Source of the DNA: a virus
Lineage: Duplodnaviria; Caudoviricetes
DNA: 50,103 nt
Reading direction: 5' to 3' (one strand)
Virus record (IMG/VR): IMGVR_UViG_3300000956_000071
Coordinates: 1 to 50,103 of that record
Under the pieces are notes generated by a model. It had not been told where the DNA came from and searched no databases. It was given only the letters and a program-made list of their open reading frames with translations. This document shows positions 1,339 to 48,664 of this stretch, in pieces (the first letter of the stretch is position 1; each line of letters begins with the position of its first letter). The position numbers were made by a program, and so were the translations under genes.

Positions 1339-2082
1339 ATGGCACTCTGCCCATTCGCAGTACATGAGCTGTTGCCTGAAAACAACAGCCAGAACAGAAT
1401 CACCCCAACCACGGTTATTTGTCATCGTGCGGTTTCAAGCGCCAAGGACCTGTACGGTTACTGGAATTCTCCAGGAATTGTTCTAGAGTCCCACTTCTAC
1501 ATCAGCGAAGATGGAACCATCTATCAGTACATGGACACCAATGTTCGCGCTGATGCGAATGTGGATGCCAACGCGTTTGCAGTGTCTATTGAGACTTGGG
1601 ATGGCGGCAACACTCCCGACTCATGGGGGTGGAACCCAGCTCAGCTCAAGTCACTCAAGAGGCTGATCCTATGGGTCTGCAATGTCCACGGTATCAAGAA
1701 GGCTCCGGCCCAGACTTGGAACGGTGGAGGTATCGGCGGACACAACTGGTTCCCGGAACCTTGGGCAGACGGCCCTAGGGGATGTCCAGGCACCGCACGA
1801 AACGCACAACTACGCAATGAAATTATTCCTGCCGTCGCGGCGGGTGTTACGGAGGATGACGTGACTTGGGACGATGAGGCTCTAACGCTCAAGAACGGGG
1901 TGGTGATCACCTTCCGAGAGCTGTTTAAGTCCATGGACAACAACGGCAGTGAGGTACGGGATCGTCTACGCATCGTTGAGCAGAAGATTGACAACATCGT
2001 GGTAGGTGGAATCGACATTGACCTACTCGTAGCCAAGATTCTGGAAAAGCTTGATGTAGACCTAGTATCTCGTGGGTCCTAA
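1339..2082 (+). CDS. Endolysin, N-acetylmuramoyl-L-alanine amidase (Amidase_2)
   Basis: ICH..., SHFYI..DGTIYQY, SIET, GGH...CPG Zn-amidase motifs. Confidence 0.85.
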   Translation: MALCPFAVHELLPENNSQNRITPTTVICHRAVSSAKDLYGYWNSPGIVLESHFYISEDGTIYQYMDTNVRADANVDANAFAVSIETWDGGNTPDSWGWNPAQLKSLKRLILWVCNVHGIKKAPAQTWNGGGIGGHNWFPEPWADGPRGCPGTARNAQLRNEIIPAVAAGVTEDDVTWDDEALTLKNGVVITFRELFKSMDNNGSEVRDRLRIVEQKIDNIVVGGIDIDLLVAKILEKLDVDLVSRGS

Positions 2083-2144
2083 TGGACAAGTGCTTTTGCA
2101 ATATCTGCGAAAGGTACCACTCTCCTAAGTGTCCAGGAGGCTAA
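2082..2144 (+). CDS. 20-aa Cys/His microprotein MDKCFCNICERYHSPKCPGG
   Basis: TAATG overlap with lysin stop; CxxC-x3-H-x3-C. Confidence 0.5.
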   Translation: MDKCFCNICERYHSPKCPGG

Positions 2145-2219
2145 TTAAATACTTGTGCAGTAAAAAGATGTCTGCACGGGCCCTTGGAGTAGAGGGCTTC
2201 ATAATATTCTACTCCTCCG

Positions 2220-2294
2220 GTGGACAACGCCAGTAGGTAATAGGCACGGGGCTCATAACCCTGTATATGGCAGGTTCGAATCCTGCTGTCCGCA
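2220..2294 (+). tRNA. tRNA-Met (CAT)
   Basis: Cloverleaf; anticodon arm CGGGG-CTCATAA-CCCTG; T-arm GCAGG-TTCGAAT-CCTGC. Confidence 0.85.
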
Positions 2295-2296
2295 CT

Positions 2297-2371
2297 CTGT
2301 AGTTAGTTTAACGGCAAAACCCTAGGTTGTGACCCTAGAGTTACTCGGTTCAACTCCGGTACTACAGTCCA
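2297..2371 (+). tRNA. tRNA-His (GTG), atypical acceptor end
   Basis: CTAGG-TTGTGAC-CCTAG; acceptor CTGTAGT/ACTACAG; CCA encoded. Confidence 0.8.
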
Positions 2372-2443
2372 CGGAACTTAGCTCAGTGGGAAGAGCAACC
2401 GGTTGAAGCCCGGTGCGCGGCGGTTCGAATCCGTCAGTTTCGG
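2372..2443 (+). tRNA. tRNA-Phe (GAA)
   Basis: ACCGG-TTGAAGC-CCGGT; TAGCTCAG D-arm; GGTTCGAATCC. Confidence 0.9.
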
Positions 2444-2447
2444 CAAT

Positions 2448-2518
2448 GTGGCATTAGTGTATAGACTGCACGGCTGGCTTCCACCCAGCAAGAGGGAGTT
2501 TGATTCTCCCATGCTGCT
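2448..2518 (+). tRNA. tRNA-Gly (TCC)
   Basis: GCTGG-CTTCCAC-CCAGC; T discriminator. Confidence 0.85.
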
Positions 2519-2520
2519 CC

Positions 2521-2591
2521 GCCATATTAGCTCAACGGTAGAGCTCCTGTTTAGTAATCAGGTGATGAGGGTTCAATTCCTTCATGTGGCT
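2521..2591 (+). tRNA. tRNA-Thr (AGT)
   Basis: CCTGT-TTAGTAA-TCAGG; acceptor GCCATAT/ATGTGGC. Confidence 0.8.
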
Positions 2592-2595
2592 CTTT

Positions 2596-2667
2596 TGCTT
2601 GTTCGTCCAACTGGCAGGACATCTGGCTCTGAACCAGAAGACTGAGGTTCGAATCCTTGACAGGCAG
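2596..2667 (+). tRNA. tRNA-Gln (CTG)
   Basis: TCTGG-CTCTGAA-CCAGA; U1-A72, G73. Confidence 0.9.
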
Positions 2668-2750
2668 CAGGTAGGATTGTGGGTACGCTTCGAATAGTAA
2701 GAAACCCTCTGGCGGTTGGCTGGGTCCGGCATTAATCAAAAGCCAGCTTT

Positions 2751-2822
2751 GTTTACGTATCTCAATGGTAGAGGACCAGGTTGTCAACTTGGGAGATGTG
2801 GGTTCAAGTCCCATCGTAAGCG
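2751..2822 (+). tRNA. tRNA-Asp (GTC)
   Basis: CCAGG-TTGTCAA-CTTGG; G73. Confidence 0.9.
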
Positions 2823-2823
2823 C

Positions 2824-2896
2824 GCTTGTGTAGGCCATCTGGAGAGCCGCTAGATTTAGGTTCTAGTGCATGCAGGTTCGACTCCTGTCACAAGTA
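2824..2896 (+). tRNA. tRNA-Leu (TAG) with short variable loop
   Basis: CTAGA-TTTAGGT-TCTAG; 5-nt variable region; A73. Confidence 0.8.
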
Positions 2897-2991
2897 CTTA
2901 GTTGGCAGCTTAACTGCCTCAGTCCAGCGATGGCTACATACTCCTGCCCTTCAGTGTGGCTGGTGGTGATGCTGTATCGAGTGGCTGATAA

Positions 2992-3063
2992 GGGTCTTTG
3001 ATCCAAAGGAAACGATTCTTCCCTACGAAGGAAGCCATGGGGGTTCGAGTCCCTCAAGACCCA
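2992..3063 (+). tRNA. tRNA-Arg (ACG)
   Basis: CTTCC-CTACGAA-GGAAG; acceptor GGGTCTT/AAGACCC. Confidence 0.9.
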
Positions 3064-3162
3064 CGAGTTGGTAGTGCATACGTTAAACTACCCGTAGGTG
3101 GCTCGACGCGTCAGGTTGGCGGTTCATGTGCGCAGTGATCCGGATAACCAGAGGGCTAACAA

Positions 3163-3233
3163 TCCTGTATAGCATAAGGGCAATGCGGCGGACTGTTAAT
3201 CCGCTAATCTAGGTTCGAGTCCTGGTATGGGAG
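3163..3233 (+). tRNA. tRNA-Asn (GTT)
   Basis: GCGGA-CTGTTAA-TCCGC; G73. Confidence 0.9.
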
Positions 3234-3307
3234 CTGGCAGGCGTGCGCACAGCATCCGTTCGAATCGGACGTTTCTTTGTACCGTAAACGATATCCACGG
3301 AACACAG

Positions 3308-3381
3308 GCCTATCTAGCTCAATTGGTCAGAGCGTCTCCCTGATGAGGAGAAGGTACTAGGTTCAAAACCTAGGGTAGGTA
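3308..3381 (+). tRNA. tRNA-Ile (GAT)
   Basis: TCTCC-CTGATGA-GGAGA. Confidence 0.88.
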
Positions 3382-3460
3382 CAAGCTGCGTACTTCCCAG
3401 AACGTACGTAGAGACGGGTGGTACTGGACTATGGTGAGGCCAGTTTCGCGACCCTAACAA

Positions 3461-3531
3461 GCTTCCGTAGCTGAGGGGATTAGCTCGGGACTCTTAATCC
3501 TGAGACGTTGGTTCGATTCCAACCGGGAGTA
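3461..3531 (+). tRNA. tRNA-Lys (CTT)
   Basis: CGGGA-CTCTTAA-TCCTG. Confidence 0.9.
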
Positions 3532-3534
3532 CTT

Positions 3535-3617
3535 GGAAGCTAGCACGCGATGGTGCGTAAGCGGTCTTGAAAACCGTGCCGGGTGCAAGCCTGAGGGTTC
3601 GACTCCTTTAGTTTCCG
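3535..3617 (+). tRNA. tRNA-Ser (TGA)
   Basis: GCGGT-CTTGAAA-ACCGT; long variable arm; G73. Confidence 0.88.
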
Positions 3618-3620
3618 CTT

Positions 3621-3704
3621 GGAAGATGGATCAGCCGGTGCTGAAGTCGGATTGCTAATCCGATCCGGCGTTTCTCGCCGTGGGTTCAACTCCTACTTCT
3701 TCCG
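3621..3704 (+). tRNA. tRNA-Ser (GCT)
   Basis: TCGGA-TTGCTAA-TCCGA; long variable arm; G73. Confidence 0.88.
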
Positions 3705-3750
3705 CAGGTGGCCTTAAACGCGGCCTGTCTTAGGGCAGGTGGTCACACAT

Positions 3751-3819
3751 ATCAGTTGGGCTATGGTAGCCAAGCGGTCTCCAAAACCGTAGGACAGGGT
3801 TCAATTCCTTGAGCTGGTG
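3751..3819 (+). tRNA. tRNA-Trp (CCA)
   Basis: GCGGT-CTCCAAA-ACCGT; compact D-arm. Confidence 0.85.
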
Positions 3820-3820
3820 T

Positions 3821-3907
3821 ATGTCTAATTATGAAGGCACTGTCATCTGTCCGCGATGTGGTCGGGTAATCCCCACTGAATGTGATGGGAGTTGCTACAA
3901 GAAGTGA
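3821..3907 (+). CDS. 28-aa Zn-finger-like microprotein MSNYEGTVICPRCGRVIPTECDGSCYKK
   Basis: CPRCG knuckle plus CxxxC; GTGA overlap with next ORF. Confidence 0.55.
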   Translation: MSNYEGTVICPRCGRVIPTECDGSCYKK

Positions 3908-4020
3908 CTAGGGAAGTATGCGACCACAGTATGGGAAGCAGATTAGTCCTCGAAGATAAATGGTTGGTAGAACGCTGTAAGGGTTGCGGTGCAGAGATGG
4001 GGAGAGAATGGCAGGGGTAA
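3904..4020 (+). CDS. 38-aa Zn-finger-like microprotein (CDH...CKGCG)
   Basis: GTG start overlapping upstream TGA; CxH-x16-CxxC. Confidence 0.55.
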   Translation: MTREVCDHSMGSRLVLEDKWLVERCKGCGAEMGREWQG

Positions 4021-4079
4021 GTTACGTTGTGTATTGTGGTAAGTGTGGCAAGGTGCATGCTTACGATGTAGAGTGTTAG
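4008..4079 (+). CDS. 23-aa microprotein MAGVSYVVYCGKCGKVHAYDVEC
   Basis: GGGGAG RBS; CxxC-x3-H-x5-C. Confidence 0.5.
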   Translation: MAGVSYVVYCGKCGKVHAYDVEC

Positions 4080-4086
4080 AAATGAT

Positions 4087-4160
4087 CTGGCTGTAGCTCA
4101 GCTTGGTAGAGCCGCGCGTTTGGGGCGCGATGGTCGGGGGTTCAAATCCTCCCAGTCAGA
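4087..4160 (+). tRNA. tRNA-Pro (TGG)
   Basis: GCGCG-TTTGGGG-CGCGA; C1-G72, A73. Confidence 0.9.
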
Positions 4161-4190
4161 CGAGAGGGCCACTGCAACACTAGCCCTCAA

Positions 4191-4261
4191 GCCCTGTTAG
4201 TTCAATGGGAGAACGGCTGTCTTACACACAGCTCATGGCAGTTCGATTCTGTCACGGGGTA
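4191..4261 (+). tRNA. tRNA-Val (TAC)
   Basis: GCTGT-CTTACAC-ACAGC; A73. Confidence 0.9.
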
Positions 4262-4287
4262 CTTTATTGGTTTGAAAGGATGTATCA

Positions 4288-5541: not shown

Positions 5542-5560
5542 ACTATAAAGGGAGCACCTT

Positions 5561-21496: not shown

Positions 21497-21787
21497 GTGA
21501 CTGAACCTGTGCACCAGATTGGCATGACTGAACTGTACAACGAGATTAGACAGTTGAGTGAGAGATTCACCGAATACGCTAGTAGACATGGTGTTGAATC
21601 CACCTCAATGAATCACAAGATCAGTGAGCTTGAGAAGGACCTTGCAGAAGTGCGGGCCGACCTGAAGGCCGAGGGTGTTCGTAGGAGCAACACTGCATGG
21701 CAGATGAAGCTAGCCGTGGCATCCTCTTTGATCTTTCCAATCATCGTTGCCATTGTAACCGCATTGCTTATTTCGAAGGGATCGTAA
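21497..21787 (+). CDS. Coiled-coil protein with C-terminal TM helix (lysis accessory)
   Basis: Hydrophobic C-terminus; adjacent to holin. Confidence 0.55.
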   Translation: MTEPVHQIGMTELYNEIRQLSERFTEYASRHGVESTSMNHKISELEKDLAEVRADLKAEGVRRSNTAWQMKLAVASSLIFPIIVAIVTALLISKGS

Positions 21788-22002
21788 TGCTGAGTAAGGC
21801 ATATTGGGCAAGACTGGCTGAGGACCTCTGGACGGGCCTGATCACTGGCGTGGGTACAATCGTACTCATGGCTGGTTTCGACGTCTTCACGGCCGATTGG
21901 AAGGCTGTTCTGGGGGCCGGACTGACTGGTGCCATTGTGGCGGCCGTGAAGGCTGCTCTGGCTACGCCAGTCGGCGCTGACGACTCACCTCGTGTTAAGT
22001 GA
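21787..22002 (+). CDS. Holin (r1t-like)
   Basis: MLSKAYWARLAE start (TAATG overlap); two TM segments; ADW motif. Confidence 0.7.
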   Translation: MLSKAYWARLAEDLWTGLITGVGTIVLMAGFDVFTADWKAVLGAGLTGAIVAAVKAALATPVGADDSPRVK

Positions 22003-22066
22003 CCATGTACAAGCGGCGCAAGAAGCGGCCAAAGAAGAGATAGTGCAAGTGTGCTAAATAAAGACA

Positions 22067-22107
22067 AAAGAAAAAGGCCCCACCCCCGGAAGGGGGTGGG
22101 GCTATTT
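22067..22107. terminator. Bidirectional intrinsic terminator between the convergent arms
   Basis: A-tract, GCCCCACCCCC-GGAA-GGGGGTGGGGC, then TATTT. Confidence 0.88.
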
Positions 22108-22114
22108 GTCGTTC

Positions 22115-22309
22115 CTAGCGCTTTCCGGTGGCAATCAGGTACAACCACACGAGTCCCCACATACCACCAGTTACGATGGTGAGGACCGCATGCCACGTCC
22201 AGTGGATCCTTGGCTTTCGATGTGCGTTCATGATGTAGACATTCTGTTGCTGAGGGTTGTACTGCTGGTGGGGATGGTACTGGCTCGGTCCATTTTGGTG
22301 GTAATGCAT
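22115..22309 (-). CDS. Small membrane protein
   Basis: Gln/Pro-rich N-terminus plus HAVLTIVTGGMWGLVWL. Confidence 0.6.
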   Translation of the reverse strand: MHYHQNGPSQYHPHQQYNPQQQNVYIMNAHRKPRIHWTWHAVLTIVTGGMWGLVWLYLIATGKR

Positions 22310-22327
22310 GGGGCTCCCTCCCGAGGC

Positions 22328-23249: not shown

Positions 23250-23762
23250 TCAGTACACTCCCACTCGTCGTTCCAAAATCTTTTCGTACAGCTTCCGGTT
23301 CCACTTGGCGTCAACCAATGCGTTGTGCTGATCACCATCGTACTGAACACTATCAGCAACGTTGACCAGTCGGTGAGGATCAGACTCGATCATCTGTTTC
23401 AGGTCGAAGGAGAACCAGGGCATACCCGTAGGCATGTCCACCATCCTACCAAACAACTGAGCCAGAACTACATGATCATACGCTACATAGTAGCCATACA
23501 GAGAATTCTTGGTGAAGTCGTTCTTGTTTCCACAAATGAAGTTCTTTACTTCATGGGCAATCACCTTAGGGTGAGCCTGCTGCCCGATGAGGTGAGGCTT
23601 TACGTTCTCCCAGAGCCAGTGACCTTCAGGTACGAAGTTATCCCACACGAACGTGCTGCTTTCAAGATACAGCTCTCGCCCGTCCTCAGCCTCAATGCCG
23701 ATAGAAATTAGGTGGATCCGTTCCCCATCTTCGTAAAACTCAGTATCATAGAAGAACTTCAT
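23250..23762 (-). CDS. DEDDh 3'-5' exoribonuclease (RNase AS/Rv2179c-like)
   Basis: FYDTEF..LISIG...AYDHV.L.QLFG...HNAL.DA.W. Confidence 0.85.
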   Translation of the reverse strand: MKFFYDTEFYEDGERIHLISIGIEAEDGRELYLESSTFVWDNFVPEGHWLWENVKPHLIGQQAHPKVIAHEVKNFICGNKNDFTKNSLYGYYVAYDHVVLAQLFGRMVDMPTGMPWFSFDLKQMIESDPHRLVNVADSVQYDGDQHNALVDAKWNRKLYEKILERRVGVY

Positions 23763-23872
23763 CAATCCTCCTTATTGGCCGGGTTACTGGCACAGTTGGC
23801 TTCGTGAGAAGCGATGTTCTTCCTGTGAAAGGGGTTACCGCAGTACCGGCATTCCTCCGTGTCCCAGCTCAC
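23762..23872 (-). CDS. 36-aa C2HC Zn-finger microprotein MSWDTEECRYCGNPFHRKNIASHEANCASNPANKED
   Basis: Overlaps both neighbours; CxxC-x11-HxxxC. Confidence 0.65.
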   Translation of the reverse strand: MSWDTEECRYCGNPFHRKNIASHEANCASNPANKED

Positions 23873-24198: not shown

Positions 24199-24339
24199 TT
24201 AATCATCCTCTTCCTTCGGAGCGTTAGGGCAGGCCGAACCGTGAGAACCCCATCCTGAGGGGTAGTAGTCGCCACAGTCAATGCACTTGGTCATGCCCTG
24301 TGTATTGAAATCCCCCACTGGGTTGCGTGACCATCCCAT
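24199..24339 (-). CDS. 46-aa C2HC microprotein (CIDC...HGSACPN)
   Basis: TAATG overlap; exactly fills the gap between genes. Confidence 0.6.
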   Translation of the reverse strand: MGWSRNPVGDFNTQGMTKCIDCGDYYPSGWGSHGSACPNAPKEEDD

Positions 24340-24739: not shown

Positions 24740-24741
24740 TT

Positions 24742-24888
24742 CTACTCCTTGTTTGCCGGATTGTTTGCGCAGCCCATTGCGTGGTACGCAGCCTGTGAGT
24801 TTGCATCCTGCTGAGCAGCAGATCCGTTGTCTCCATACCCTGTGAAGGGAGCACCACACCACGGGCATTGGGCTGTTCTACTCGCCAT
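24742..24888 (-). CDS. 48-aa C2HC microprotein (CPWC...HAMGCANNPANKE)
   Basis: TAATG overlap; GGAGG RBS; shares C-terminus with 23762-23872. Confidence 0.65.
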   Translation of the reverse strand: MASRTAQCPWCGAPFTGYGDNGSAAQQDANSQAAYHAMGCANNPANKE

Positions 24889-25421
24889 TAGATATCCTCC
24901 TCTGAATCCCACCAGAACACTCCAAGGGTGGACCCCTTGAAGGCCATAGACTTGCCCATCACCTCATGCATCTCATCAAACGTCCAGTGCTTCAGGTGAG
25001 CCTCGTAAGGGTTACCGTTGACTTCGCCCTGAGGTGCATGGACTATAGGCAGTGATACCAGGATCCACCTGAAGTGGTTCTTGGCTCGAAGAATCAACTG
25101 CCGGGCATCGTCCTCGGGCAGGTGCTCCAGAACGTCACCGAAGATAATCAGCTTGTCGAAGGATCGGTCACGAGGCTGAAACTGAACGTCCCTGATGTCG
25201 GCGTTGATCACGAGGTCATACTTGGAGTTCAGATCGTACTCTTCAATGTATGGCTCCCAGACCTCCACAGCCGTCCAGGTGGTGTAGTCCTGAACGTTGG
25301 TGTATCGCATGAGGTCTCGGTACGTTCCTTGGCCTGCCCCCACATCAACAATACCATCGGGGCAGTAGTGCTCCATCAGGAGTTGTGAGATCAGCTTCCC
25401 CTGCTTATCGCTTGTTGGCAC
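24888..25421 (-). CDS. Class I SAM-dependent methyltransferase
   Basis: IVDVGAGQG motif I; FGDVLEHL. Confidence 0.88.
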   Translation of the reverse strand: MPTSDKQGKLISQLLMEHYCPDGIVDVGAGQGTYRDLMRYTNVQDYTTWTAVEVWEPYIEEYDLNSKYDLVINADIRDVQFQPRDRSFDKLIIFGDVLEHLPEDDARQLILRAKNHFRWILVSLPIVHAPQGEVNGNPYEAHLKHWTFDEMHEVMGKSMAFKGSTLGVFWWDSEEDI

Positions 25422-25494
25422 GGTCTACCTCCTTCACCTTCCAGCAAGGCCATCCTGTCATGCATGCTTCATGGTCTGGGCAGTCATCACACAC
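25405..25494 (-). CDS. 29-aa Cys-rich microprotein MCDDCPDHEACMTGWPCWKVKEVDRANKR
   Basis: TAGTG overlap with upstream ORF. Confidence 0.45.
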   Translation of the reverse strand: MCDDCPDHEACMTGWPCWKVKEVDRANKR

Positions 25495-25550
25495 TAGTGA
25501 CCCCCACACTGATTAATGGGCTTCTGACATAACGGACAGATTGGCATCAC
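25494..25550 (-). CDS. 18-aa microprotein MMPICPLCQKPINQCGGH
   Basis: GTGA overlap with RNA ligase stop; CxxC-x6-CxxH. Confidence 0.45.
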   Translation of the reverse strand: MMPICPLCQKPINQCGGH

Positions 25551-26293: not shown

Positions 26294-26304
26294 AGTAACT
26301 CTCC

Positions 26305-26858: not shown

Positions 26859-26860
26859 GA

Positions 26861-27184
26861 CTACTCCTGCCAGATGTCCTTGAACATGAACTCGATTCCA
26901 CCCTTGTACAAGGCCCTGTCCAGATCATCTGAGAGAAGGTCAGGCATCACGAACTTGCCAGTCACCACGATGTCGGAAGACATGTAACCCTGCTTCGCGT
27001 GCCGTTCTAGGTGATCCACTGTGTCCTCATTCTCAATCACATTGAGATTCAGGCTGTAGCTCTCAAGATCGTGGGTGGCCTCGTGGAGACGGACAAGCTC
27101 CTCCTCGTTGCCGTCAAGCTGAAGCCAGAAGGTCCACGTCTCACCTTCCCAGTCGTTGTCCTCGGTGAAAGGAACAAACCGCAT
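26861..27184 (-). CDS. Hypothetical acidic protein
   Basis: E.NDWEGETW.F...LYKGGI; TAATG overlap. Confidence 0.65.
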   Translation of the reverse strand: MRFVPFTEDNDWEGETWTFWLQLDGNEEELVRLHEATHDLESYSLNLNVIENEDTVDHLERHAKQGYMSSDIVVTGKFVMPDLLSDDLDRALYKGGIEFMFKDIWQE

Positions 27185-27276
27185 TACTTACCCCTTCCGG
27201 CCTTGTCGATCTCTCGAAGACAATTGCACGTCTCGGCGTTGCCGCCACAACCTGCACAGTATGTGTAATTAATCAT
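27184..27276 (-). CDS. 30-aa microprotein MINYTYCAGCGGNAETCNCLREIDKAGRGK
   Basis: AGGAG RBS; CxxC-x6-CxC. Confidence 0.55.
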   Translation of the reverse strand: MINYTYCAGCGGNAETCNCLREIDKAGRGK

Positions 27277-27364
27277 CGTCTCCTACTTCGCATTTGCCAC
27301 AGACGACACCACTGCCGCTGGGCTTTCCACAGACAAAGCACTTGCCGTCGTCGGGATCACACAT
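27269..27364 (-). CDS. 31-aa microprotein MCDPDDGKCFVCGKPSGSGVVCGKCEVGDDD
   Basis: CxxC-x9-CxxC; overlaps both neighbours. Confidence 0.55.
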   Translation of the reverse strand: MCDPDDGKCFVCGKPSGSGVVCGKCEVGDDD

Positions 27365-27509
27365 GGCATTCACACTCACAGAACCCATCAAAGGTGCAAA
27401 TCCCGCCGCACTCTTCAAACTCACAAGGTCCATATACTTTCCCTTCTATGCACATCCACAAACCAGTCCAACATTCGTGCTCACTTGTCCCGACAGTCGT
27501 AACAGACAT
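27357..27509 (-). CDS. 50-aa microprotein with 8 Cys (...CEFEECGGICTFDGFCECECHV)
   Basis: GGAAGGAAG RBS; overlaps both neighbours. Confidence 0.55.
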   Translation of the reverse strand: MSVTTVGTSEHECWTGLWMCIEGKVYGPCEFEECGGICTFDGFCECECHV

Positions 27510-27618
27510 CTTCCTTCCGCCCGTCCACAGGATCTACATTCAGATTGTCGATATGAGTCCACTCAAAACAGATGCAACATAGTGCACCATCCTCAGTTGG
27601 CTGAGGCCACGGGCTCAT
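27481..27618 (-). CDS. 45-aa Zn-finger microprotein (CCIC...CYDC)
   Basis: GGAGGTG RBS before ATG at 27618. Confidence 0.6.
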   Translation of the reverse strand: MSPWPQPTEDGALCCICFEWTHIDNLNVDPVDGRKEDVCYDCRDK

Positions 27619-27700
27619 TATCACCTCCAGGTGGTAGCCAGCACCCACAACTGGGAAGTTGTGGGTGCCATTCACACTTAGGCTGCTGCTCCGTATCCAT
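27593..27700 (-). CDS. 35-aa microprotein (CEWH...CGC)
   Basis: Fills the gap after the polymerase; weak RBS. Confidence 0.35.
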   Translation of the reverse strand: MDTEQQPKCEWHPQLPSCGCWLPPGGDNEPVASAN

Positions 27701-35853: not shown

Positions 35854-36053
35854 TCAAAATCCTCCTCATTACCGTATACATCACGGAGACTGCACTTGAG
35901 AATTCCGATGCCCTTGTAGACATAGAAGCCCCAATGGGCGTCGTAGTCGGTGCCTTCGGGTCCGTAAGCGGTTCCGTCGAATGGAAACTCATTCTCGATC
36001 TGCTCTTCGAAAAGTCGAATGAGTTCCTCAGGAAGAACTTCACGCTGCTGCAT
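35826..36053 (-). CDS. Hypothetical protein (start MQQREVL)
   Basis: AAGGAGAG RBS. Confidence 0.5.
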   Translation of the reverse strand: MQQREVLPEELIRLFEEQIENEFPFDGTAYGPEGTDYDAHWGFYVYKGIGILKCSLRDVYGNEEDFEWELHLKTL

Positions 36054-36537
36054 TGCGTCTCTCCTTGTACTCGTTGAGGTAATCAATTCCGAACTGGAGA
36101 ATAGTAACGTTGTCCCTGATGAAGCCAAGGAACTTGTTACATGGACCGCAGAGCAGACCACGAACACATTTGCCACAGGACGTCTTGCCTGCACAGCACT
36201 TGTGATCATGGTCTACCTGCCTACCCTTGCGATACCTACAGATCCAGCACAAGCCCTCAAATCGATTCTGAAGGCCTAAGTACTGGTCCCCGGTCAGGTT
36301 GTACTGCTTGGCTACGTACGCCAGTCTACGGGCCAATGAGGCCCTGTTACGTTCAATCCTGTGACAGGTCGCACAGCGTGGCCCTGGACTACTCAGCTTT
36401 CTGGTACCACTCCCACAGTCCTTGCAACACTTCGTCGGGGACGTAGTCGCCTTCCGGCCCTGCGAGCCAGGAGTTTTGGGACTGGATGATGTAGTTCGTT
36501 GCCTTGAGGTACTCCTTGGCGTGCTCCTTGAGACCAT
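36040..36537 (-). CDS. Endonuclease VII-like resolvase (start uncertain)
   Basis: CWIC...VDHDH.CC...VRGLLC..CN..LG. Confidence 0.88.
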   Translation of the reverse strand: MVSRSTPRSTSRQRTTSSSPKTPGSQGRKATTSPTKCCKDCGSGTRKLSSPGPRCATCHRIERNRASLARRLAYVAKQYNLTGDQYLGLQNRFEGLCWICRYRKGRQVDHDHKCCAGKTSCGKCVRGLLCGPCNKFLGFIRDNVTILQFGIDYLNEYKERRNAAA

Positions 36538-36668
36538 GGCTGCACTCAGTCACAGTCGAAGGAGTGCTGATCTCCTGGATAGTCATCGTAGTCCTCATAT
36601 TCAGGGTACCAGTCGTCGTACTCTTCGATCACTTCGCACCATCCCAATCGGGAATTTCATGCTTGCAG

Positions 36669-36776
36669 CTAGACATCGGTCCTACAGCCCCCATTCCTGC
36701 ATACGTAGCAAATCTCGTACTTTTCCCGAACTGTGGTCCCACACCCACAGGCGCAGTCGCACGTATAGTTAATCAA
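36669..36776 (-). CDS. 35-aa microprotein MINYTCDCACGCGTTVREKYEICYVCRNGGCRTDV
   Basis: GGAGGAG RBS with TTG start; 7 Cys. Confidence 0.55.
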   Translation of the reverse strand: MINYTCDCACGCGTTVREKYEICYVCRNGGCRTDV

Positions 36777-38147: not shown

Positions 38148-38582
38148 TCAGTTCAACTCCCTTAGTTGTAGGTCAATCATATCGATGATGGTTTCCACTG
38201 TGTAATCGCAGTCCGTCTGTACGGCACTTACCCCGTTGCGGATATCCAACAGAATATTCACAACATCTTCCTTGAGCAGTGCTCCTGTAATCACTGTGCT
38301 GCCCCCTGAATGGTGGTGAGAATGAAGGTGGCAAGTTCGATCGTCTGCTGGCCAACAGTAACCACAGTGACCATGATGCCGATGCCTGCCATGACGTTCC
38401 ACAACAGCTTCGCAATCTTCATCTACACTCCTTTTAATAGTAACGGCGATGTGGCTTACAGGTCAGGGACCACAATGGGCGGGACGTCCGGAAGAGGGAA
38501 GTGGCTGTCGGTCTTCTCGTCCTCATCCGGATCCTGCGTAGGCCACATGATTCGGTCTGGTCTCAGTTCGTGCTTGCCCATT

Positions 38583-38738
38583 TTACTTCTCTCCTTCACG
38601 TATGTGTTTGCATGTACGGATCTCGGTACGAACTGCCCTACATCTTCCACAACTCCAGCAAATGAAGTCTGTGGTATGGCATGTAGGGCAGTTGTACTTG
38701 CTTGCTACCATTGAGCTGGCGCAGTTAGGACAGTTCAT
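38583..38738 (-). CDS. 51-aa multi-Zn-ribbon microprotein (CPNC, CPTC, CWSC, CKH)
   Basis: Read manually; three CxxC knuckles. Confidence 0.6.
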   Translation of the reverse strand: MNCPNCASSMVASKYNCPTCHTTDFICWSCGRCRAVRTEIRTCKHIREGEK

Positions 38739-40069: not shown

Positions 40070-41017
40070 CTAAAAATCTCCCCTCTCGACCTGGAAGCAC
40101 AGAAGGCCAAGCGACCTCCACATGTCCACCACGCGGTCTCGATCATCATACACACCGACGATGTTGTACTTGTCTCGGATGTATTGGTTGAACAGCTCAG
40201 CCTTGATGACAGAGTCCTCAGTGCCATGCTCGTAACGCATGTGAAGCCCCTCAATCGGGACCTTGACGTGCTGATACAGCCATTCCTCTGTGACATCCTT
40301 GAAATCCTCGTGCCGACCCGACACGAACAAGATCTTACGACCCACTACGTAGTGCTGAGTCTGAACCTCTCGGATGACATCGTATTTGGGCTTGTCCAGT
40401 GCATATTTGGATGGGTCGTAAGGGCTACGCACACCCCTACAGTCAGCCACAGTCCCATCAATGTCCACGATGATGGCTTCCGGCAGACCAGGAATCCATT
40501 CTACCTTCTCGTAGCTCACAGGAGGCACGAACGCCAGGTGAGGGTAGAGCTTGTAGGGCTTCCACGTGTCAGCCTTCAACGTGCTGCTGAACTTGCGTTC
40601 CAGGCTATAGATCACATCACTGCCCACCCAACGTTGCCCACGCTCCCGCCGGAGGCGGTCCCATAGGATACACTGAGCGGTACTGACCTGAGTGCAGTCA
40701 ATAATCTCGAATTCAGCACCGTAGTTGTTGGCAATCTCAGCCCACTGCTTGCGGTACTTCTCCCGCAAATGGCAGTCGTGGATGACCACGTGCTTGCCTG
40801 CTTTGATACCACCCTTCACCAGATCCTTCTGAACCCTGGTGATGTACTGCTCAAGGTCGTTGTCCAAGATACCTTCACCATTGAACAAAGACTTACGCAG
40901 ATCATCCCTGGAAACCAGAAGAGTGTTAAGAGGATCTGCCGCCTGAATCTCAAGCGCTTTGGTGGTCTTTCCAGATCCAGGCAGCCCCACCGTAATACTG
41001 ACCTTAGGCAGGCTCAT
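40070..41017 (-). CDS. pnk: Polynucleotide 5'-kinase/3'-phosphatase (T4 PseT-like)
   Basis: GLPGSGKT, SRDDLR; HAD DIDGT, SGR, DDR. Confidence 0.92.
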   Translation of the reverse strand: MSLPKVSITVGLPGSGKTTKALEIQAADPLNTLLVSRDDLRKSLFNGEGILDNDLEQYITRVQKDLVKGGIKAGKHVVIHDCHLREKYRKQWAEIANNYGAEFEIIDCTQVSTAQCILWDRLRRERGQRWVGSDVIYSLERKFSSTLKADTWKPYKLYPHLAFVPPVSYEKVEWIPGLPEAIIVDIDGTVADCRGVRSPYDPSKYALDKPKYDVIREVQTQHYVVGRKILFVSGRHEDFKDVTEEWLYQHVKVPIEGLHMRYEHGTEDSVIKAELFNQYIRDKYNIVGVYDDRDRVVDMWRSLGLLCFQVERGDF

Positions 41018-41210
41018 TGATCTCCTCAAACCGGCCGTTAGGCCCAGCAAGAGCCCCCATCAGATCCTCAATCGTCTCTCCTGGTGCAGGGATGTCGAAG
41101 TGGTCGCTGTATTCTCCCGAGGGAAGCTGCATACGAACCACACCATCCTCCCACTTGTAGAGGTCCCCGCCTTCTGAGGAAAGCTCATCGAAAAGTCGAA
41201 AAAACCTCAT
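41004..41210 (-). CDS. Hypothetical protein
   Basis: AAGGAG RBS. Confidence 0.55.
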   Translation of the reverse strand: MRFFRLFDELSSEGGDLYKWEDGVVRMQLPSGEYSDHFDIPAPGETIEDLMGALAGPNGRFEEINEPA

Positions 41211-41737: not shown

Positions 41738-41738
41738 G

Positions 41739-42167: not shown

Positions 42168-42387
42168 TGTTCTCCCTCTCGATTTGTTTTATTTCTTGGA
42201 TAATGTCTTCCAACCACTGATCGCATTCCGCTTGGGTCTTCCCTGCAAACCTCATTGCGATCATGTGCCTTGCTACACGCTTGGAAAGATCCGCAGGAAT
42301 GGCACGGACGTTAGGTCCAGACTTACCTTTGTTGGAAAAGACCTTCCCCGTGCCACCCTTAGATGGGTTTCCCCGACTAACAAACAC
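42160..42387 (-). CDS. Hypothetical basic protein
   Basis: Overlaps both neighbours. Confidence 0.5.
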   Translation of the reverse strand: MFVSRGNPSKGGTGKVFSNKGKSGPNVRAIPADLSKRVARHMIAMRFAGKTQAECDQWLEDIIQEIKQIERENND

Positions 42388-43439
42388 TAAGGCTTTACCT
42401 GCTTCCAGATCAGCTCCGCCACCCGTGACTCTTGCCCATCAAGCATCATGAACAAACAAGAGCGGTAAACCGCAGTCCACTTCTCAGACCATTTTGCGAA
42501 GGCCTTTCGATCCTTCTTCAGCTCTGGGCTCACGTTGTACCAGAGTGCCTCCAGAGCGTCCCAGTAGTCCTGCACTCGATTGAACAAATCCCGTAGGATT
42601 GGCTCCGCCCAGGAATGCAACTCCTCTGGAATGGATGCCATAATCTCATCGTAGGTCTTACCGTCAGACGCCCATTGCCATAGTTGCTTTTCGTTCAGTC
42701 CAGTCATCACCTTGTGCAGTTCGATGTAGTCTTCCTGCTTCAGCTTCAGGCGGTCGCCTGTTTCCTCGTTGAGGACCACCACACCCTCAGCATTGGGCCT
42801 TTTCAGATCGATCATCTCTCGCACGTGCCCCCAACTACCTGCCATCATGAAGTGGTTCAGCTTGACTCCATAATACATCATGTACTTGTAGTCGAAGAAG
42901 TCTTTTCCCGACCTTATGTCCACAGAGCCCAGGTACCTCAGTGACTCTTCGTCTCCGTAGTCCAGGACGATACGGTTTTCGGGATAGATGATCTCGAACA
43001 GATCTGTGTGGATACCGTCTGTCTCGTATGCCCGGTATTTGGTCCTGAGAAGCTCTGTAGCCTTCAAAGCCTGGTCTGAGGCAAAGGACCCCTTGGTGGC
43101 GATCGCAGGGCCCACAGGAGTGTTGTAAGCGATGCCTAAAGACCCATCCACCTTGTCGTACACAGTAACCCAGTCGTCTTCCTTGAACTCAGGTGCGTTG
43201 GGCTCCCCCAGGTTGAAGAACTTCTTGAACGGACGGGCCAGGATCTCTCCAGTCTCCTGATGGTAGATCAAACCCCGACAGTTCTTAGTAACGTCATTCC
43301 AAGCCCGTTCGAACATGGCCTGTTTGGTGTAACACGCAATGTTGTAAGGGAAAAAGGGGTGACGCTGGACGCGGACGTAACCCCCCTTTGTCATCTCGAC
43401 TAAGTCTTTCGCGTCCATCAGGTCGTAGATGGTGATCAT
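42387..43439 (-). CDS. RNA ligase 1 (T4 Rnl1-like)
   Basis: CRGLI, ARPFKKFFN, K.DGSL, FEII.P.NRIV, EGVV, KLK..Y. Confidence 0.92.
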   Translation of the reverse strand: MITIYDLMDAKDLVEMTKGGYVRVQRHPFFPYNIACYTKQAMFERAWNDVTKNCRGLIYHQETGEILARPFKKFFNLGEPNAPEFKEDDWVTVYDKVDGSLGIAYNTPVGPAIATKGSFASDQALKATELLRTKYRAYETDGIHTDLFEIIYPENRIVLDYGDEESLRYLGSVDIRSGKDFFDYKYMMYYGVKLNHFMMAGSWGHVREMIDLKRPNAEGVVVLNEETGDRLKLKQEDYIELHKVMTGLNEKQLWQWASDGKTYDEIMASIPEELHSWAEPILRDLFNRVQDYWDALEALWYNVSPELKKDRKAFAKWSEKWTAVYRSCLFMMLDGQESRVAELIWKQVKP

Positions 43440-43516
43440 TACTCTCCTCTAGATTTGCACTGACAATAAATTAGTATTCGTTTGCAGTCTGGGCAGTAGA
43501 AGATCTCTACAGGCAC
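43439..43516 (-). CDS. 25-aa microprotein MPVEIFYCPDCKRILIYCQCKSRGE
   Basis: GAGGAAG RBS; TAATG coupling to RNA ligase; CxxC-x6-CxC. Confidence 0.55.
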   Translation of the reverse strand: MPVEIFYCPDCKRILIYCQCKSRGE

Positions 43517-43638
43517 GTTTCTTCCTCACGTGTAGATAAGGTCAATCGCAATCACCAAGGCCAGAACCACCAGGATGATGGGATCGACGAACAGCGCGGC
43601 CACGAGCACTACAATGGCCAACAGGACACCTACAGGGC

Positions 43639-44055
43639 TCATGATCCTGAACTCCCCTTCCCTGCTGATCCAGAGCCAAATCCTCCTCGGGAGATGGCCG
43701 ACTTACTGATGGTGGACCCTGAGGTAGGAACACCACCACGTGAATAGTAACTGGATTTTGGGGCTCCACTGTACCCATGAGACCTAGTGACCTTCTGGCC
43801 TACTGGGGGCGCACTGTGACCAGAATTGGTGCTGTACCAAAACCACACAGAACCATTGTCACTTTCCCATCCCTCAGAGCCATCAGAGCAGTTGTCGTCA
43901 TCAATCCTCTGCTCTGTCTTTGGGTCAATGCAAACCCCGATTTCGTCCGCCTCAGATGGAGCCACAGAGCAGCCAGCCAGCACGATAGCCAGCGCCGACA
44001 CAAGGCCAACTGTGTTCACCATAGTGCCCTGTTTACTCATGTCAGCTCCGTGCAA
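43639..44055 (-). CDS. Lipoprotein with Gly/Ser-rich tail
   Basis: LAGC lipobox; C.D...R.DD..C; SRGGFG. Confidence 0.65.
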   Translation of the reverse strand: MHGADMSKQGTMVNTVGLVSALAIVLAGCSVAPSEADEIGVCIDPKTEQRIDDDNCSDGSEGWESDNGSVWFWYSTNSGHSAPPVGQKVTRSHGYSGAPKSSYYSRGGVPTSGSTISKSAISRGGFGSGSAGKGSSGS

Positions 44056-44992: not shown

Positions 44993-45023
44993 TTACATCT
45001 CCTTCTATTGGTTATTAGTAACG

Positions 45024-45598: not shown

Positions 45599-45659
45599 CG
45601 ATCGTATTCACGGTGCTTCCAGCACCACCATGTCTCGTGCCAAGTTCTCAGTAGAGCTC

Positions 45660-46436: not shown

Positions 46437-47341
46437 CAGACCTCCTTAACGGTCAACGTCTCTCGAATTCGCTTGGCGATGGTGGCGAACGGAACACCCT
46501 TGTCGTTCAGCTGCACCACCGAAATCAACTCTCGTCCATCCCGGAGGTAGGGGTCATACTCTTCCTCGTCCCCTTCCCAGGTGTCCGTGTCCATCTTGTC
46601 AACAAGAATGGTGTCACCAGCAGCGTTTCCGTTGACAAACGTCCGGGGGATACCCAGGAACTCCGTCACGGAAGGCGGCATCAACAGGGTGAACCTGGTC
46701 CCACACGCATCGATGTACGTACGTGAGGAGCGATTCTCCTCCCTATCAACCAGCCTGACACCACACTCAGGACCAAGCACAGCCGTAGCCACCCCAAGGC
46801 AGCACATAGCGTTGGTAGACCTCTCGTGGAGCCGGTGAGTACCCTGCTTGTACTGCCCCGACTCAAGGGCGCTAAGGAACTTGTCCAGGGCTTCCGTGTT
46901 CACACCCTCAACATAAGGCAACCGGAACTCCGCCTCGAATGCATCTGCGATTTCCGCGAAGCTCTTGCCCAGGCTGTCGTTCCACCCAATTGCAGTGTGG
47001 ACACGCTTGTCATCGTCATTGTTGTCGAAACCCTGCTTGAAGAACGGAACATCACACGAAGTCTCACCATGAACCCTGTGAGACTTCGGAAGGCCAATCC
47101 AGTCAGCCACCCTCAGGGACAGGGCACCCGAACTGGTGTCGTAGAAGATGCCACCGTAATCCAGCTCCTTCCTCTCCACCGCGCCCGCCTCACTGGCCAG
47201 GTTGGACACCACGCCGAGACAGCAGAAAGAGCCGTCACGCGATTCCAGCTTGTGATGACCCTGCTTGTAATCCCCACTCCGCAGTGCGGTCAGGAAAGCA
47301 TCGAAGTTCTCTTCGTTGATACCAGCAATGTACTTGGACAT
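46436..47341 (-). CDS. Hypothetical protein with internally duplicated domain
   Basis: Two copies of FL.AL.SG.YKQG...L...CCLGV and ND....F..IA. Confidence 0.75.
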   Translation of the reverse strand: MSKYIAGINEENFDAFLTALRSGDYKQGHHKLESRDGSFCCLGVVSNLASEAGAVERKELDYGGIFYDTSSGALSLRVADWIGLPKSHRVHGETSCDVPFFKQGFDNNDDDKRVHTAIGWNDSLGKSFAEIADAFEAEFRLPYVEGVNTEALDKFLSALESGQYKQGTHRLHERSTNAMCCLGVATAVLGPECGVRLVDREENRSSRTYIDACGTRFTLLMPPSVTEFLGIPRTFVNGNAAGDTILVDKMDTDTWEGDEEEYDPYLRDGRELISVVQLNDKGVPFATIAKRIRETLTVKEV

Positions 47342-47345
47342 GAAA

Positions 47346-47579
47346 TCAGTTCTCCTTCTGATTTTTGATAGCCGTTTGTAGTTGAATTCTGCGGTTGATC
47401 AGTGCGGTGAACCCGCGATGAAAGTAACGCTCATTCCTCCAATAAGAGGAACGCAGGAACCACGAGAAGGGATGATCCCTCTTGATCTGCGCCATGTTCT
47501 CCTTGTAGCACTGGTTGGCAGCGTCCCAGATTAGGATCGCCTTCTGAAGCCTTTCCACATTGATCTGAGCAGCTGTCAA
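47346..47579 (-). CDS. Hypothetical protein
   Basis: GAGGTG RBS; TTGA overlap. Confidence 0.5.
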   Translation of the reverse strand: MTAAQINVERLQKAILIWDAANQCYKENMAQIKRDHPFSWFLRSSYWRNERYFHRGFTALINRRIQLQTAIKNQKEN

Positions 47580-47761
47580 GACACCTCACCCATCAATTCT
47601 TTCAGGTTGTTGATTGTGGTGGAGAGGTCGATCCCACGCTGCATGCCCAGAGTAGTGAGTATGTTGATCACATCCTCCCCATAAACGTAAGGGCCCCCCG
47701 GAAAATTGTCGAACTCCTCAACATTTACCACCCGTACACGCACGTTAATCGTGTTTCCCAC
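47576..47761 (-). CDS. Hypothetical protein
   Basis: AGGAGG RBS; TAGTG overlap. Confidence 0.55.
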   Translation of the reverse strand: MGNTINVRVRVVNVEEFDNFPGGPYVYGEDVINILTTLGMQRGIDLSTTINNLKELMGEVS

Positions 47762-48531
47762 TATGCCTCCTTAAAGACACATGAATCCCTGACAGGACAC
47801 CTAGGGCACACATCAGGGTCAGGAGCGGGATCGAACCTTTCAGCCTTGACGTTCTCGTCAAGCTCACCATATACGTCAGCAAGCCTTTGAACAGACCAGT
47901 CGGAAAGATCGTACGGCCTTGTGGGCTTCCCCAGTTTGGCCATCCAATACCGTCCTGTGGTGAAAGGAATGTCCCACTCTAGGTTGAGGACTCCAGCGTA
48001 CGTGGCGAGCTGTTCTGGGCCGCCAGGCGTAGCGCCAGTCTTGTAGTCATCGGGTTTTCCCTCGATAACAACGTCGATATAGCCAACCACCTCAACCGAT
48101 CCAAACTTAACCCGGAACTCTTTCTCGATCCATTGGTTACCAGAAGGATCTGTCCACGGAATGTGATCAGGGTGCTCCCTGATGTATTTGAAGAATCCGT
48201 CAAGCTGGTCTTGCCCAACCTGCATTCTCCTTGGGATGTCTCGCAGAGCATTGTATGGACCTGATCGTTCCCACACTGCCGGGTTGGGTGACTCCTTCAA
48301 CTCTTCGTTGATCTGGGCCCTATATGCCTCTCTGAAGTGCTCTTTGACTTCCTCAGGTGTCATCACCCTGCCAGACTTCTCGAAGACCTCTACAGCGCTG
48401 TGAAAGGCCGTTCCGTGGGCAAGCCAGGGTGCCGGACGCTTCCACACTCGTTCCCGCCGAGACAGGAAGTAGGCATGCGGACACCTCGTGTATTCGTTGA
48501 GCTGGGATGGGCTTCTGTACTCGTCAGTCAC
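47761..48531 (-). CDS. Cas4/RecB-like PD-(D/E)XK exonuclease
   Basis: SPSQL..Y..CP; GTAFH; E...G.ID...DYKTG; QL.TY; C..CP....C. Confidence 0.9.
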   Translation of the reverse strand: MTDEYRSPSQLNEYTRCPHAYFLSRRERVWKRPAPWLAHGTAFHSAVEVFEKSGRVMTPEEVKEHFREAYRAQINEELKESPNPAVWERSGPYNALRDIPRRMQVGQDQLDGFFKYIREHPDHIPWTDPSGNQWIEKEFRVKFGSVEVVGYIDVVIEGKPDDYKTGATPGGPEQLATYAGVLNLEWDIPFTTGRYWMAKLGKPTRPYDLSDWSVQRLADVYGELDENVKAERFDPAPDPDVCPRCPVRDSCVFKEA

Positions 48532-48664
48532 CGTCCCACCACCTAGTTTTCTTCACCCGGAGCCGTTGACACTTCTCACATCGCCTGTATTGCTCTTTGG
48601 GTGGGTAAGTATCCCATCTCTGAGGGATATCAACCCAGTCTTCCCACTTGTGCCAGCACCACAT
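48524..48664 (-). CDS. 46-aa microprotein (CWHKW...CEKC)
   Basis: TGATG overlap; CxH...CxxC. Confidence 0.6.
   Translation of the reverse strand: MWCWHKWEDWVDIPQRWDTYPPKEQYRRCEKCQRLRVKKTRWWDGD

Follow-up and report, generated by a model that had tools for sequence, protein, structure and literature searches.

Do the short, cysteine-rich open reading frames (ORFs) that fill gaps between the genes of an uncultured phage encode proteins and, if they do, do these proteins form one system? The question arises in the IMG/VR virus record IMGVR_UViG_3300000956_000071 (Duplodnaviria; Caudoviricetes), which we analyzed as a whole over its 50,103 bp (hereafter, the window; 99% complete by CheckV). The original prediction had picked out 18 short sense-strand ORFs with sets of cysteine (Cys) and histidine (His) residues, labeled c2082 to c48524 here, and had read them as a diversified, mobile library of one-domain zinc microproteins and as an undescribed system. 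Our results make it likely that at least 15 of the 18 are real tailed-phage genes encoding separate, metal-stabilized binding modules (the metal most likely being Zn2+) from many unrelated families. As a set, they are lineage-specific and, probably, zinc-stabilized binding modules.

Cys-rich ORFs are concentrated in the gaps between genes

A scripted ORF listing, with starts or ends within 6 nucleotides (nt) of each predicted coordinate, recovered all 18 ORFs with the residue patterns described, on the strand of their neighbors and at lengths of 17–54 amino acids (aa); start, stop, and open frame were re-checked for each (Table 1). Every ORF has at least four Cys/His residues (counted by eye), in keeping with the size (<70 aa) and ligand content of one-domain zinc-finger micro-proteins. 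They had been called unannotated, which holds for the first ORF track but not for public resources as a whole, where the exact c24742 protein is already the representative P0147 of a predicted-protein library.

Cys is rare in the larger ORFs, as had been noted (1.26% across the 75 sense ORFs that reach ≥60 aa, 14,813 aa in total). In an unbiased set of all ORFs of 15–59 aa, with gap ORFs lying ≥75% outside large sense ORFs and tRNAs, a CxxC motif occurs in 16/53 gap sense ORFs compared with 25/621 of all other small ORFs (Fisher p=5.3e-9), the latter made up of antisense ORFs in gaps (0/16), other sense frames inside genes (14/260), and antisense ORFs inside genes (11/345). Cys content follows the same division, at 5.96% in gap sense ORFs and 3.1–3.6% in the other classes. 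When the 34 gap segments (5,656 nt) were shuffled 500 times with dinucleotides preserved and scored for ORFs with at least three Cys and a close Cys pair, the shuffles yielded 3.07±1.70 such ORFs (maximum 9), whereas the real gaps have 17 in the sense direction and none in antisense. The position and strand classes together with the gap shuffles thus confirm the reported enrichment, which goes far beyond chance.

Translation signals and conservation

The ribosome-binding sites and stop–start overlaps that the original prediction described are present and gene-like. Shine–Dalgarno (SD) energy, calculated for the duplex of the 20 upstream nt with the anti-SD core motif, has a median of -7.75 kcal/mol in the 18 ORFs, -7.7 in 43 long genes, and -2.8 in 621 null ORFs (Mann–Whitney p=1.5e-9), and 14/18 ORFs reach -6 or lower compared with 13% of null ORFs. 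The start codon overlaps the upstream stop by 1–29 nt in 15/18 (as TAATG, GTGA, ATGA, or longer overlaps); among the remaining three, one start abuts tRNA-Trp and two follow gaps of 9 and 50 nt.

Relatives were gathered through DNA polymerase and TerL alignment and comprise 11 viral records (6 complete by CheckV; TerL identity 78–93%) plus shorter loci, 24 records in total. A tblastn search of these with the 18 proteins, a comparison put forward with the original prediction, found homologues for 15/18 at E<=0.01 and for 14/18 at E<=1e-4, whereas residue-shuffled queries gave a mean of 0.55/18 at the looser threshold and none at the stricter one (20 rounds). In ten codon-aligned pairs, synonymous divergence was high or saturated (pS 0.51–1.0+) and nonsynonymous divergence was lower (pN 0.16–0.43), while Cys columns were kept in 45/48 cases and other residues in 146/287. 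Judged from these alignments, the ORFs with homologues are shown to be under purifying selection, with their ligands conserved. Distinct high-scoring segment pairs from 15/18 ORFs point the same way (Cys kept 150/155, other residues 567/1107), but these Cys counts are biased upward because the tblastn scoring matrix rewards Cys–Cys matches.

Could the ORFs instead be frames left open by chance in spacers that encode nothing, or fragments of larger genes that assembly frameshifts have broken up, above all in the chain at 27184–27700? The three ORFs without homologues and with weak SD signals would fit such an explanation, as would the 8–29 nt overlaps of the chain ORFs in different frames and the mediocre coding-frame scores discussed below. 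The shuffle, antisense, and wrong-frame controls contradict chance, however, and the 14 ORFs with homologues at the stricter threshold keep their Cys. Units of the chain that follows the DNA polymerase gene are found alone in other genomes, each with a start and stop of its own (c27593 in relatives G001/G002, c27357 in G004, and c27481 in L090), so the five-ORF chain is not one broken gene. Single-run contigs, from runs that may be the window's own sample, reproduce 26678–27720 with no differences and no gaps, which argues against assembly frameshifts in the chain. We therefore consider this explanation very improbable, and it is largely refuted for the set as a whole.

For 23700–27720, the listing of sequencing data named no RNA sample with this region. 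One sequencing run had been guessed to be RNA; it gave short 90–95%-alike pieces and one identical 241-nt contig (26520–26760), was judged to be probably DNA, and counts neither for nor against expression. Tblastn against GenBank phages with c48524, c38583, c24199, and c23762 returned no match at E<=0.01, a search with little power for such short queries against 2.3 Gb. A word-indexed protein search with c38583 gave no candidate and also missed the window's own protein, hence it carries little weight.

A lineage-specific and mosaic gene set

The closest cultured relative by TerL, the mycobacteriophage Naca (NC_054774.1), shares the window's architecture (structural genes rightward, DNA-metabolism genes leftward), has a 66% identical TerL, and likewise packs many genes of 27–60 aa, but these are almost Cys-free. 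The unbiased test finds no excess in Naca (1/42 vs 10/444), and among its annotated coding sequences (CDS) of <60 aa, 1/15 when translated contains CxxC (from 31 small CDS chosen by eye out of 88 features, 15 of them <60 aa). Ten unrelated viral contig stretches, pooled, likewise show no enrichment (4/86 vs 108/2200). Relatives within the clade show a milder excess: with strands set by hand, the counts are 10/69 in G001 and 7/69 in G003. Most other relatives have an odds ratio of ~3 and G005 has no excess in the automated pipeline, figures that are only a rough guide because automated strand inference is noisy (the rows for G006 include obvious wrong-strand ORFs). That the enrichment is weaker in relatives than in the window counts against our main reading. 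Taken together, the flat result in Naca and in unrelated contigs and the milder excess in relatives mark the enrichment as a trait of an uncultured clade, strongest in the window.

Within this clade, the genes vary in presence and place one at a time. A homologue of c27357 is present in G004 and absent from G003, though the polymerases of the two are near-identical, and c38583 has a homologue in G001 only among the related records. Relative to the loci L038/L039, where tRNA-Trp is directly followed by homologues of c3904 and c4008, c3821 is a clean ~83-nt insertion; at 326–340 in L039, the ATG after tRNA-Trp, which starts c3821 in the window, begins the c3904 homologue. In G007, homologues of c27184 and c43439 stand side by side inside a chain of Cys-rich micro-ORFs, in a region equivalent to the left arm of the window; in the window itself, 16 kb separates them and both are in the right arm. 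The position of c48524, beside the exonuclease gene, is stable.

We also observed that G007 (L078), at ~49.6–51.0 kb, and L090, at 1937–3971, have chains of their own made up of five to seven micro-ORFs rich in Cys, some of which have no relation to the window's ORFs. L090, for example, has a 29-aa ORF with CPDCG...CPNGC and a 46-aa ORF with CPGC...CSDCG.

These patterns bear on whether the ORFs form one coordinated system, a diversifying mobile library of zinc microproteins serving as an anti-defense or host-takeover arsenal, as originally proposed. Lineage-specific enrichment would suit such a system, as would the clustering of the genes (five consecutive ORFs after the DNA polymerase, another five between RNase H and an RNA ligase, and three or four within the tRNA array), their single-gene gain, loss, and relocation among relatives, and the separate chains in G007 (at 49.6–51 kb) and L090. 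Set against this, most members resemble one another neither in sequence nor in the arrangement of their ligands; we saw no flanking repeat common to them (flanking repeats were not specifically searched for) and no recombinase or diversification machinery that would mark a dedicated library; and no link to a defense system emerged from analyses of which none was aimed at one. The description as diversified and mobile stands insofar as the proteins are diverse, mostly unrelated, and mosaic in presence (c27357, c3821, and c27184/c43439), but the flux is of single genes, and mosaic gene content of this kind is the norm for phage accessory genes. A single system or library with a common function is thus not borne out, and we regard it as quite unlikely.

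Families and predicted folds

Most of the 18 ORFs are mutually unrelated; the only clear paralogues are c23762, c24199, and c24742. None of the 18 proteins has a significant profile match in PHROGs (best E=0.0078), and 0/18 pass a Pfam gathering score, with sub-threshold rows that are almost all zinc fingers or ribbons; among the 10/18 scanned against NCBIfam, one match reached 15.9 bits, where the cut-off is 137. We also considered an origin as remnants of HNH or endonuclease VII zinc sites and dropped it, there being no similarity in the PHROG and Pfam searches. The ESM Atlas, queried with c48524, returned small-protein clusters only, at 0.89–0.90, a recognition below the useful level.

The three paralogues belong to a C2HC family whose alignment (A2; 19 sequences from eight genomes, mean identity 27%) has C8, C11, H36, C40, and P44 as its only invariant columns, with the ligand order C-x2-C...H-x3-C. 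Its profile finds exactly these three ORFs in the window and up to four copies in relatives, often as tandem pairs; it has no match in Naca, nor in the four actinobacterial genomes that carry TerL-related prophages. AlphaFold2 with this alignment gave c24742 a predicted local distance difference test score (pLDDT) of 94.7, with strands E2-7 and E14-19 and helix H22-39, placing the CxxC on a β-hairpin and the H-x3-C on the long helix. The paralogues are confidently predicted to fold as ββα fingers. Searches with this model, from which the metal is absent, reached significance neither with Foldseek (E=2.3 at best) nor with VIA (Z=4.2 at best), and the VIA match is to the hairpin–helix part of dsRNA-binding domains, a common arrangement.

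The family shares its ligand order and predicted hairpin–helix with the zf-C2HC_2/TRAF/XAF1-type fingers of Pfam, but c23762 scores 16.5 bits (E=0.0068) against zf-C2HC_2 (PF13913), below the cut-off of 27, and c24199 and c24742 have no match. It differs further in a longer, variable CxxC-to-H spacer (16–34 residues), in a conserved Pro (NPxN) after the last Cys, and in occurring as stand-alone proteins of 33–64 aa, whereas zf-C2HC_2 fingers are repeats in large proteins. An exhaustive profile search of 1.84 billion representatives found 885 at E<=1e-3, and among the 150 of these that were listed, 12 are stand-alone proteins (37–59 aa) and the rest are multi-repeat. Two of the 20 library proteins scanned pass zf-C2HC_2 (P0010 with 27.6 bits and P0018 with 50.4 bits), and P0010 also has a sub-threshold GIY-YIG SegE match. 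These repeat proteins are the sole lead, a weak one, to nucleic-acid binding by the family.

Arrays of the C2HC/NPxN finger were also observed in P0001, P0006, and P0010, with 11 repeats in one 575-aa protein. In the 332-aa P0006, five repeats come after an N-terminus that, by eye, looks GIY-YIG-like.

For c38583, one of five AlphaFold2 models reached a pLDDT of 79.4, with three strands. Its top Foldseek rows are nearly all zinc ribbons (NrdR, ZifS, and Rpb9-type; E 0.54–2, none significant), and its Pfam matches to Zn_ribbon_DUF2089 (PF22747; 23.4 vs 27.6) and DZR (PF12773; 13.3 vs 27.3) lie below their cut-offs. On this model, c38583 would resemble zinc ribbons (NrdR N-terminus, RNA polymerase Rpb9/C11, and ZifS) in having CxxC knuckles at strand turns and three strands; it differs from them in being a stand-alone 51-aa protein with eight Cys.

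A proposed metal-centered fold and its alternatives

Each protein, at 17–54 aa, would be too small for a hydrophobic core, and we infer a metal-centered fold; a metal site is one of the few routes to a stable fold for a chain of 17–50 residues. Four or eight Cys/His ligands would hold one metal ion or two, Zn2+ being the likeliest, and the proteins would take the form of C2HC ββα fingers, zinc ribbons, and zinc knuckles. They would be translated by coupling within early and DNA-metabolism operons, and each on its own may act during early infection as a small rigid binder of a host or phage macromolecule, which for the C2HC members would most probably be a nucleic acid. The many unrelated families are gained, lost, and moved gene by gene, like other phage accessory genes.

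The Cys residues might instead hold iron–sulfur (Fe-S) clusters, redox-active disulfides, or bulk metal in the manner of a metallothionein-like sink, especially in c27357, c36669, and c38583 with their 7–8 Cys. The CxCxCxC run of c36669 and the CECECH run of c27357 do recall metal–thiolate clusters, and Zn and Fe-S sites are indistinguishable by sequence alone. In most members, however, the ligands number exactly four and are paired as CxxC/CxH/HxxxC knuckles, the pattern of structural zinc; non-ligand residues are constrained too in the codon-aligned pairs, the predicted folds are fingers and ribbons, and a peptide of 20–50 aa per gene would make a poor sink. On balance, such non-zinc roles appear improbable. 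The ORFs might also encode precursors of Cys-rich natural products synthesized on the ribosome (SCIFF- or ranthipeptide-like), which are similar in size and Cys richness. But the radical-SAM profile PF04055 finds nothing anywhere in the 50,103 bp, while it gave matches in 14/14 control genomes, the ORFs have no leader/core organization, and the C2HC members have a confident folded-domain model. We think this exceedingly improbable.

Several results weigh against reading the ORFs as genes for metal-stabilized binding modules. In a three-periodic Markov model trained on 43 long genes, which ranked the six frames, the ORFs' own frame came first in 9/18 and second in 7/18; the coding-frame signal is present (own frame first in 8/605 wrong-frame ORFs) but clearly below that of ordinary short genes (first in 85/96 held-out short-gene windows), which may be due in part to Cys-rich composition. 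The three ORFs c2082, c3821, and c27269 combine the weakest SD signals of the set with the lack of a tblastn homologue in the 24 related records; they are the least supported members, with nothing but their form in their favor. The homologues of c27184 in G007/G009 are marginal (E=0.005–0.007), a level that shuffled queries reach 0.55 times per 18. The other four models of c38583 are poor (pLDDT 60.4–39.8), the AlphaFold2 models contain no metal, and the structure searches returned nothing significant. Expression is a prediction, and we infer metal binding, the folds of the unmodeled proteins, and every function of the 18, zinc binding from ligand patterns, ligand conservation, and predicted folds.

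Going further than lineage-specific binding modules, one could suppose that zinc microproteins have expanded to ~1/6 of the genes in a soil actinophage lineage as an exchangeable takeover or counter-defense toolkit, with modules hopping between genome arms and the commonest member being a new, widespread viral nucleic-acid-binding finger. This extension seems unlikely to us; if true, that finger would be the C-x2-C...H-x3-C-x2-NP family, which has 885 representatives, reaches four copies in a single genome, and forms repeat arrays within larger proteins (e.g. behind a GIY-YIG-looking N-terminus).

Comparison with known small CxxC proteins

Abundant small CxxC proteins are already on record from archaeal viruses. 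The report on HF1-group haloviruses (Serpecor1 and Hardycor2; PMC7230728) gives 21–23 CxxC genes per genome, 12–14 of them <100 aa, with none in the morphogenesis module. The likeness to the window is that of a tailed virus with ~20 CxxC genes, mostly for uncharacterized micro-proteins, and a virion-assembly module free of them, the window likewise having none between the terminase and tail genes. The haloviruses differ in being archaeal, with haloarchaeal hosts that are themselves rich in such proteins, whereas the window is a bacteriophage whose closest cultured relative, Naca, shows no such excess; the size limit also differs (<100 aa vs 17–54 aa), and the likeness is one of description, not of sequence. 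Haloferax volcanii is reported to have many one-domain zinc-finger micro-proteins per genome (PMC6562870), <70 aa and with Cys pairs, whose deletions give diverse, mostly regulatory phenotypes. The window's ORFs share with them the single domain, the size, the Cys pairs, and the number per genome, again by description and not by sequence, but those proteins are cellular and archaeal and the window's are viral.

A full-text literature search, with supplements and a large small-phage-gene survey outside its scope, found no report of an excess of Cys-rich micro-ORFs in bacteriophages, and a review of phage small proteins (PMC11323111) contains 0 occurrences of 'zinc' or 'cysteine'. The claim of an undescribed system thus holds only in part: archaeal viruses already have abundant small CxxC proteins, and the set is a known kind in a new host domain and not a new kind of system.

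Phage annotation routinely overlooks genes of 17–50 codons or treats them with distrust. In this genome, a simple, checkable signature made up of paired Cys/His ligands, translational coupling, and conserved ligands sets ~15 real small genes apart from noise, and it could be applied to viral metagenomes at scale. The set also offers a compact panel of candidate metal-stabilized binders, some of only 17–25 aa, and because related, well-studied mycobacteriophages are without such binders, gain-of-function tests are conceivable in Mycobacterium smegmatis phage backgrounds. With 885 representatives, the C2HC family has enough members to support a curated model.

Catalogue of the ORFs

Start codons are ambiguous for several of the 18 ORFs. 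The longest-start readings 24521-24868, 27481-27708, and 38456-38650 (all on the minus strand) overrun neighboring micro-ORFs, so automatic longest-ORF calling hides c24742, c27593, and c38583; if the internal starts 24739, 27618, and 38581 are used instead, the ORFs fit together tightly and without overlap.

Table 1. The 18 short Cys/His ORFs of the window. SD energies are in kcal/mol; coding-frame ranks are out of six frames; G and L numbers denote related records and loci.
ORF	Position	Strand	Length and ligands	Start context, SD, coding frame	Homologues and conservation
c2082	2082..2144	+	20 aa; 4 Cys + 1 His	1-nt overlap with endolysin stop (TAATG); SD -3.3 (weak); own frame first	None in the 24 related records
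c3821	3821..3907	+	28 aa; CxxC...CxxxC	First base directly after tRNA-Trp; SD -4.7	None; Pfam matches sub-threshold, all zinc fingers
c3904	3904..4020	+	38 aa; CxH...CxxC	GTGA overlap with c3821	L038/L039, 92% identity, Cys 5/5; immediately downstream of tRNA-Trp
c4008	4008..4079	+	23 aa; CxxC-x3-H-x5-C	SD -7.8	L038/L039, 50% identity, Cys 3/3 and His conserved, E=1.2e-5
c23762	23762..23872	-	36 aa; C2HC finger family	4-nt overlap at each end	9 records, Cys 24/24; C2HC profile match 60 bits in own genome
c24199	24199..24339	-	46 aa; C2HC finger family	SD -9.5	G010 (81% identity), G006 (70%); C2HC profile match 54.4 bits
c24742	24742..24888	-	48 aa; C2HC finger family; modeled		G010, 62.5% identity
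c25405	25405..25494	-	29 aa; 4 Cys (CDDCPDxEAC...PC)		6 records, Cys 23/23; pN 0.24-0.25 vs pS 0.87-0.99
c25494	25494..25547	-	17 aa; CxxC-x6-C-x2-H at C-terminus	1-nt overlap at each end; own frame poor (rank 5/6)	G003-G006 and G010, each with C-x-G-H ending; Cys 12/12
c27184	27184..27276	-	30 aa; CxxC...CxC	SD -7.3; own frame first	Marginal (see text)
c27269	27269..27364	-	31 aa from ATG 27364 (54 aa if from 27433); C...CxxC...CxxC	SD -3.1 at ATG 27364	None in related records, nor (54-aa form) in an IMG/VR viral contig scan
c27357	27357..27509	-	50 aa; 8 Cys + His		G004 (53 aa, 9 Cys), 62% identical, immediately after DNA polymerase; Cys columns 8/9
c27481	27481..27618	-	45 aa; CCxC...CxxC	SD -10.6	L089/L090, 71% identity, same initial MSPWPQPTEDG; Cys 8/10
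c27593	27593..27700	-	35 aa; C-x2-H...CxC	23-nt overlap with DNA polymerase end	G001/G002, 78% identical across 23 aa, dN/dS 0.35; frame better conserved than the frame overlapping it
c36669	36669..36776	-	35 aa; 7 Cys (CxCxCxC...CxxC...C)	SD -9.5	G003, G011, L043; Cys 13/14 vs other residues 11/44 identical
c38583	38583..38738	-	51 aa; four CxxC-type pairs; modeled		G001, 61% identical, dN/dS 0.11, Cys 7/8
c43439	43439..43516	-	25 aa; CxxC...CxC	1-nt overlap with RNA ligase start	G007, 61% identical, E=1.4e-6, non-syntenic position
c48524	48524..48667	-	47 aa; CxH...CxxC, Trp-rich		G001 (73%), G003/G011 (38%), G007 (35%); Cys 9/9; adjoin exonuclease gene, as in window

Genome layout and neighboring genes

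Genes run rightward up to ~21.8 kb and leftward beyond. The rightward block comprises an endolysin gene, a 17-tRNA array (2220-4262), the terminase, and genes for head and tail. On the leftward arm lie a repressor-like gene (49195-49701) and the genes for RNase H, DNA polymerase I, two RNA ligases, ribonucleotide reductase, a DnaB-like helicase, endonuclease VII, an exonuclease, and polynucleotide kinase. Among GenBank phages, TerL identity peaks at 65.9%, the best matches being cluster-A-type mycobacteriophages such as Naca, and DNA-level similarity is limited to short patches. The window is an uncultured soil tailed phage with mycobacteriophages among its relatives, and an actinobacterium is its probable host. 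In a scan of 20 larger genes, we noticed no integrase (21768-22412 (-) and the whole record).

TerL relatives with 64–70% identity were seen in Lentzea, Saccharopolyspora, Actinocrispum, and one further Pseudonocardiaceae genome (L091-L094). Hosts of the Lentzea/Saccharopolyspora/Actinocrispum type have a G+C content far above the window's 52.7%. An argument on host identity or host range was dropped, as TerL-related prophages in Pseudonocardiaceae do not fix the host.

The 17-tRNA array, the two RNA ligases, and the polynucleotide kinase (2220-4262; 25547-26293; 40070-41050; 42387-43439) resemble a tRNA supply-and-repair kit, of the sort that phages use against anticodon nucleases. The endonuclease VII homologue (36040-36537, minus strand) has 13 Cys in 165 aa and is the most Cys-rich of the larger genes, in line with the known zinc site of that family. 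Two microgenes without Cys adjoin Cys-rich ones: a 33-aa ORF before the endonuclease VII gene (36546-36647, minus strand) is extremely acidic and aromatic-rich, and a 38-aa ORF before c43439 (43526-43642, minus strand) has a single predicted transmembrane helix.

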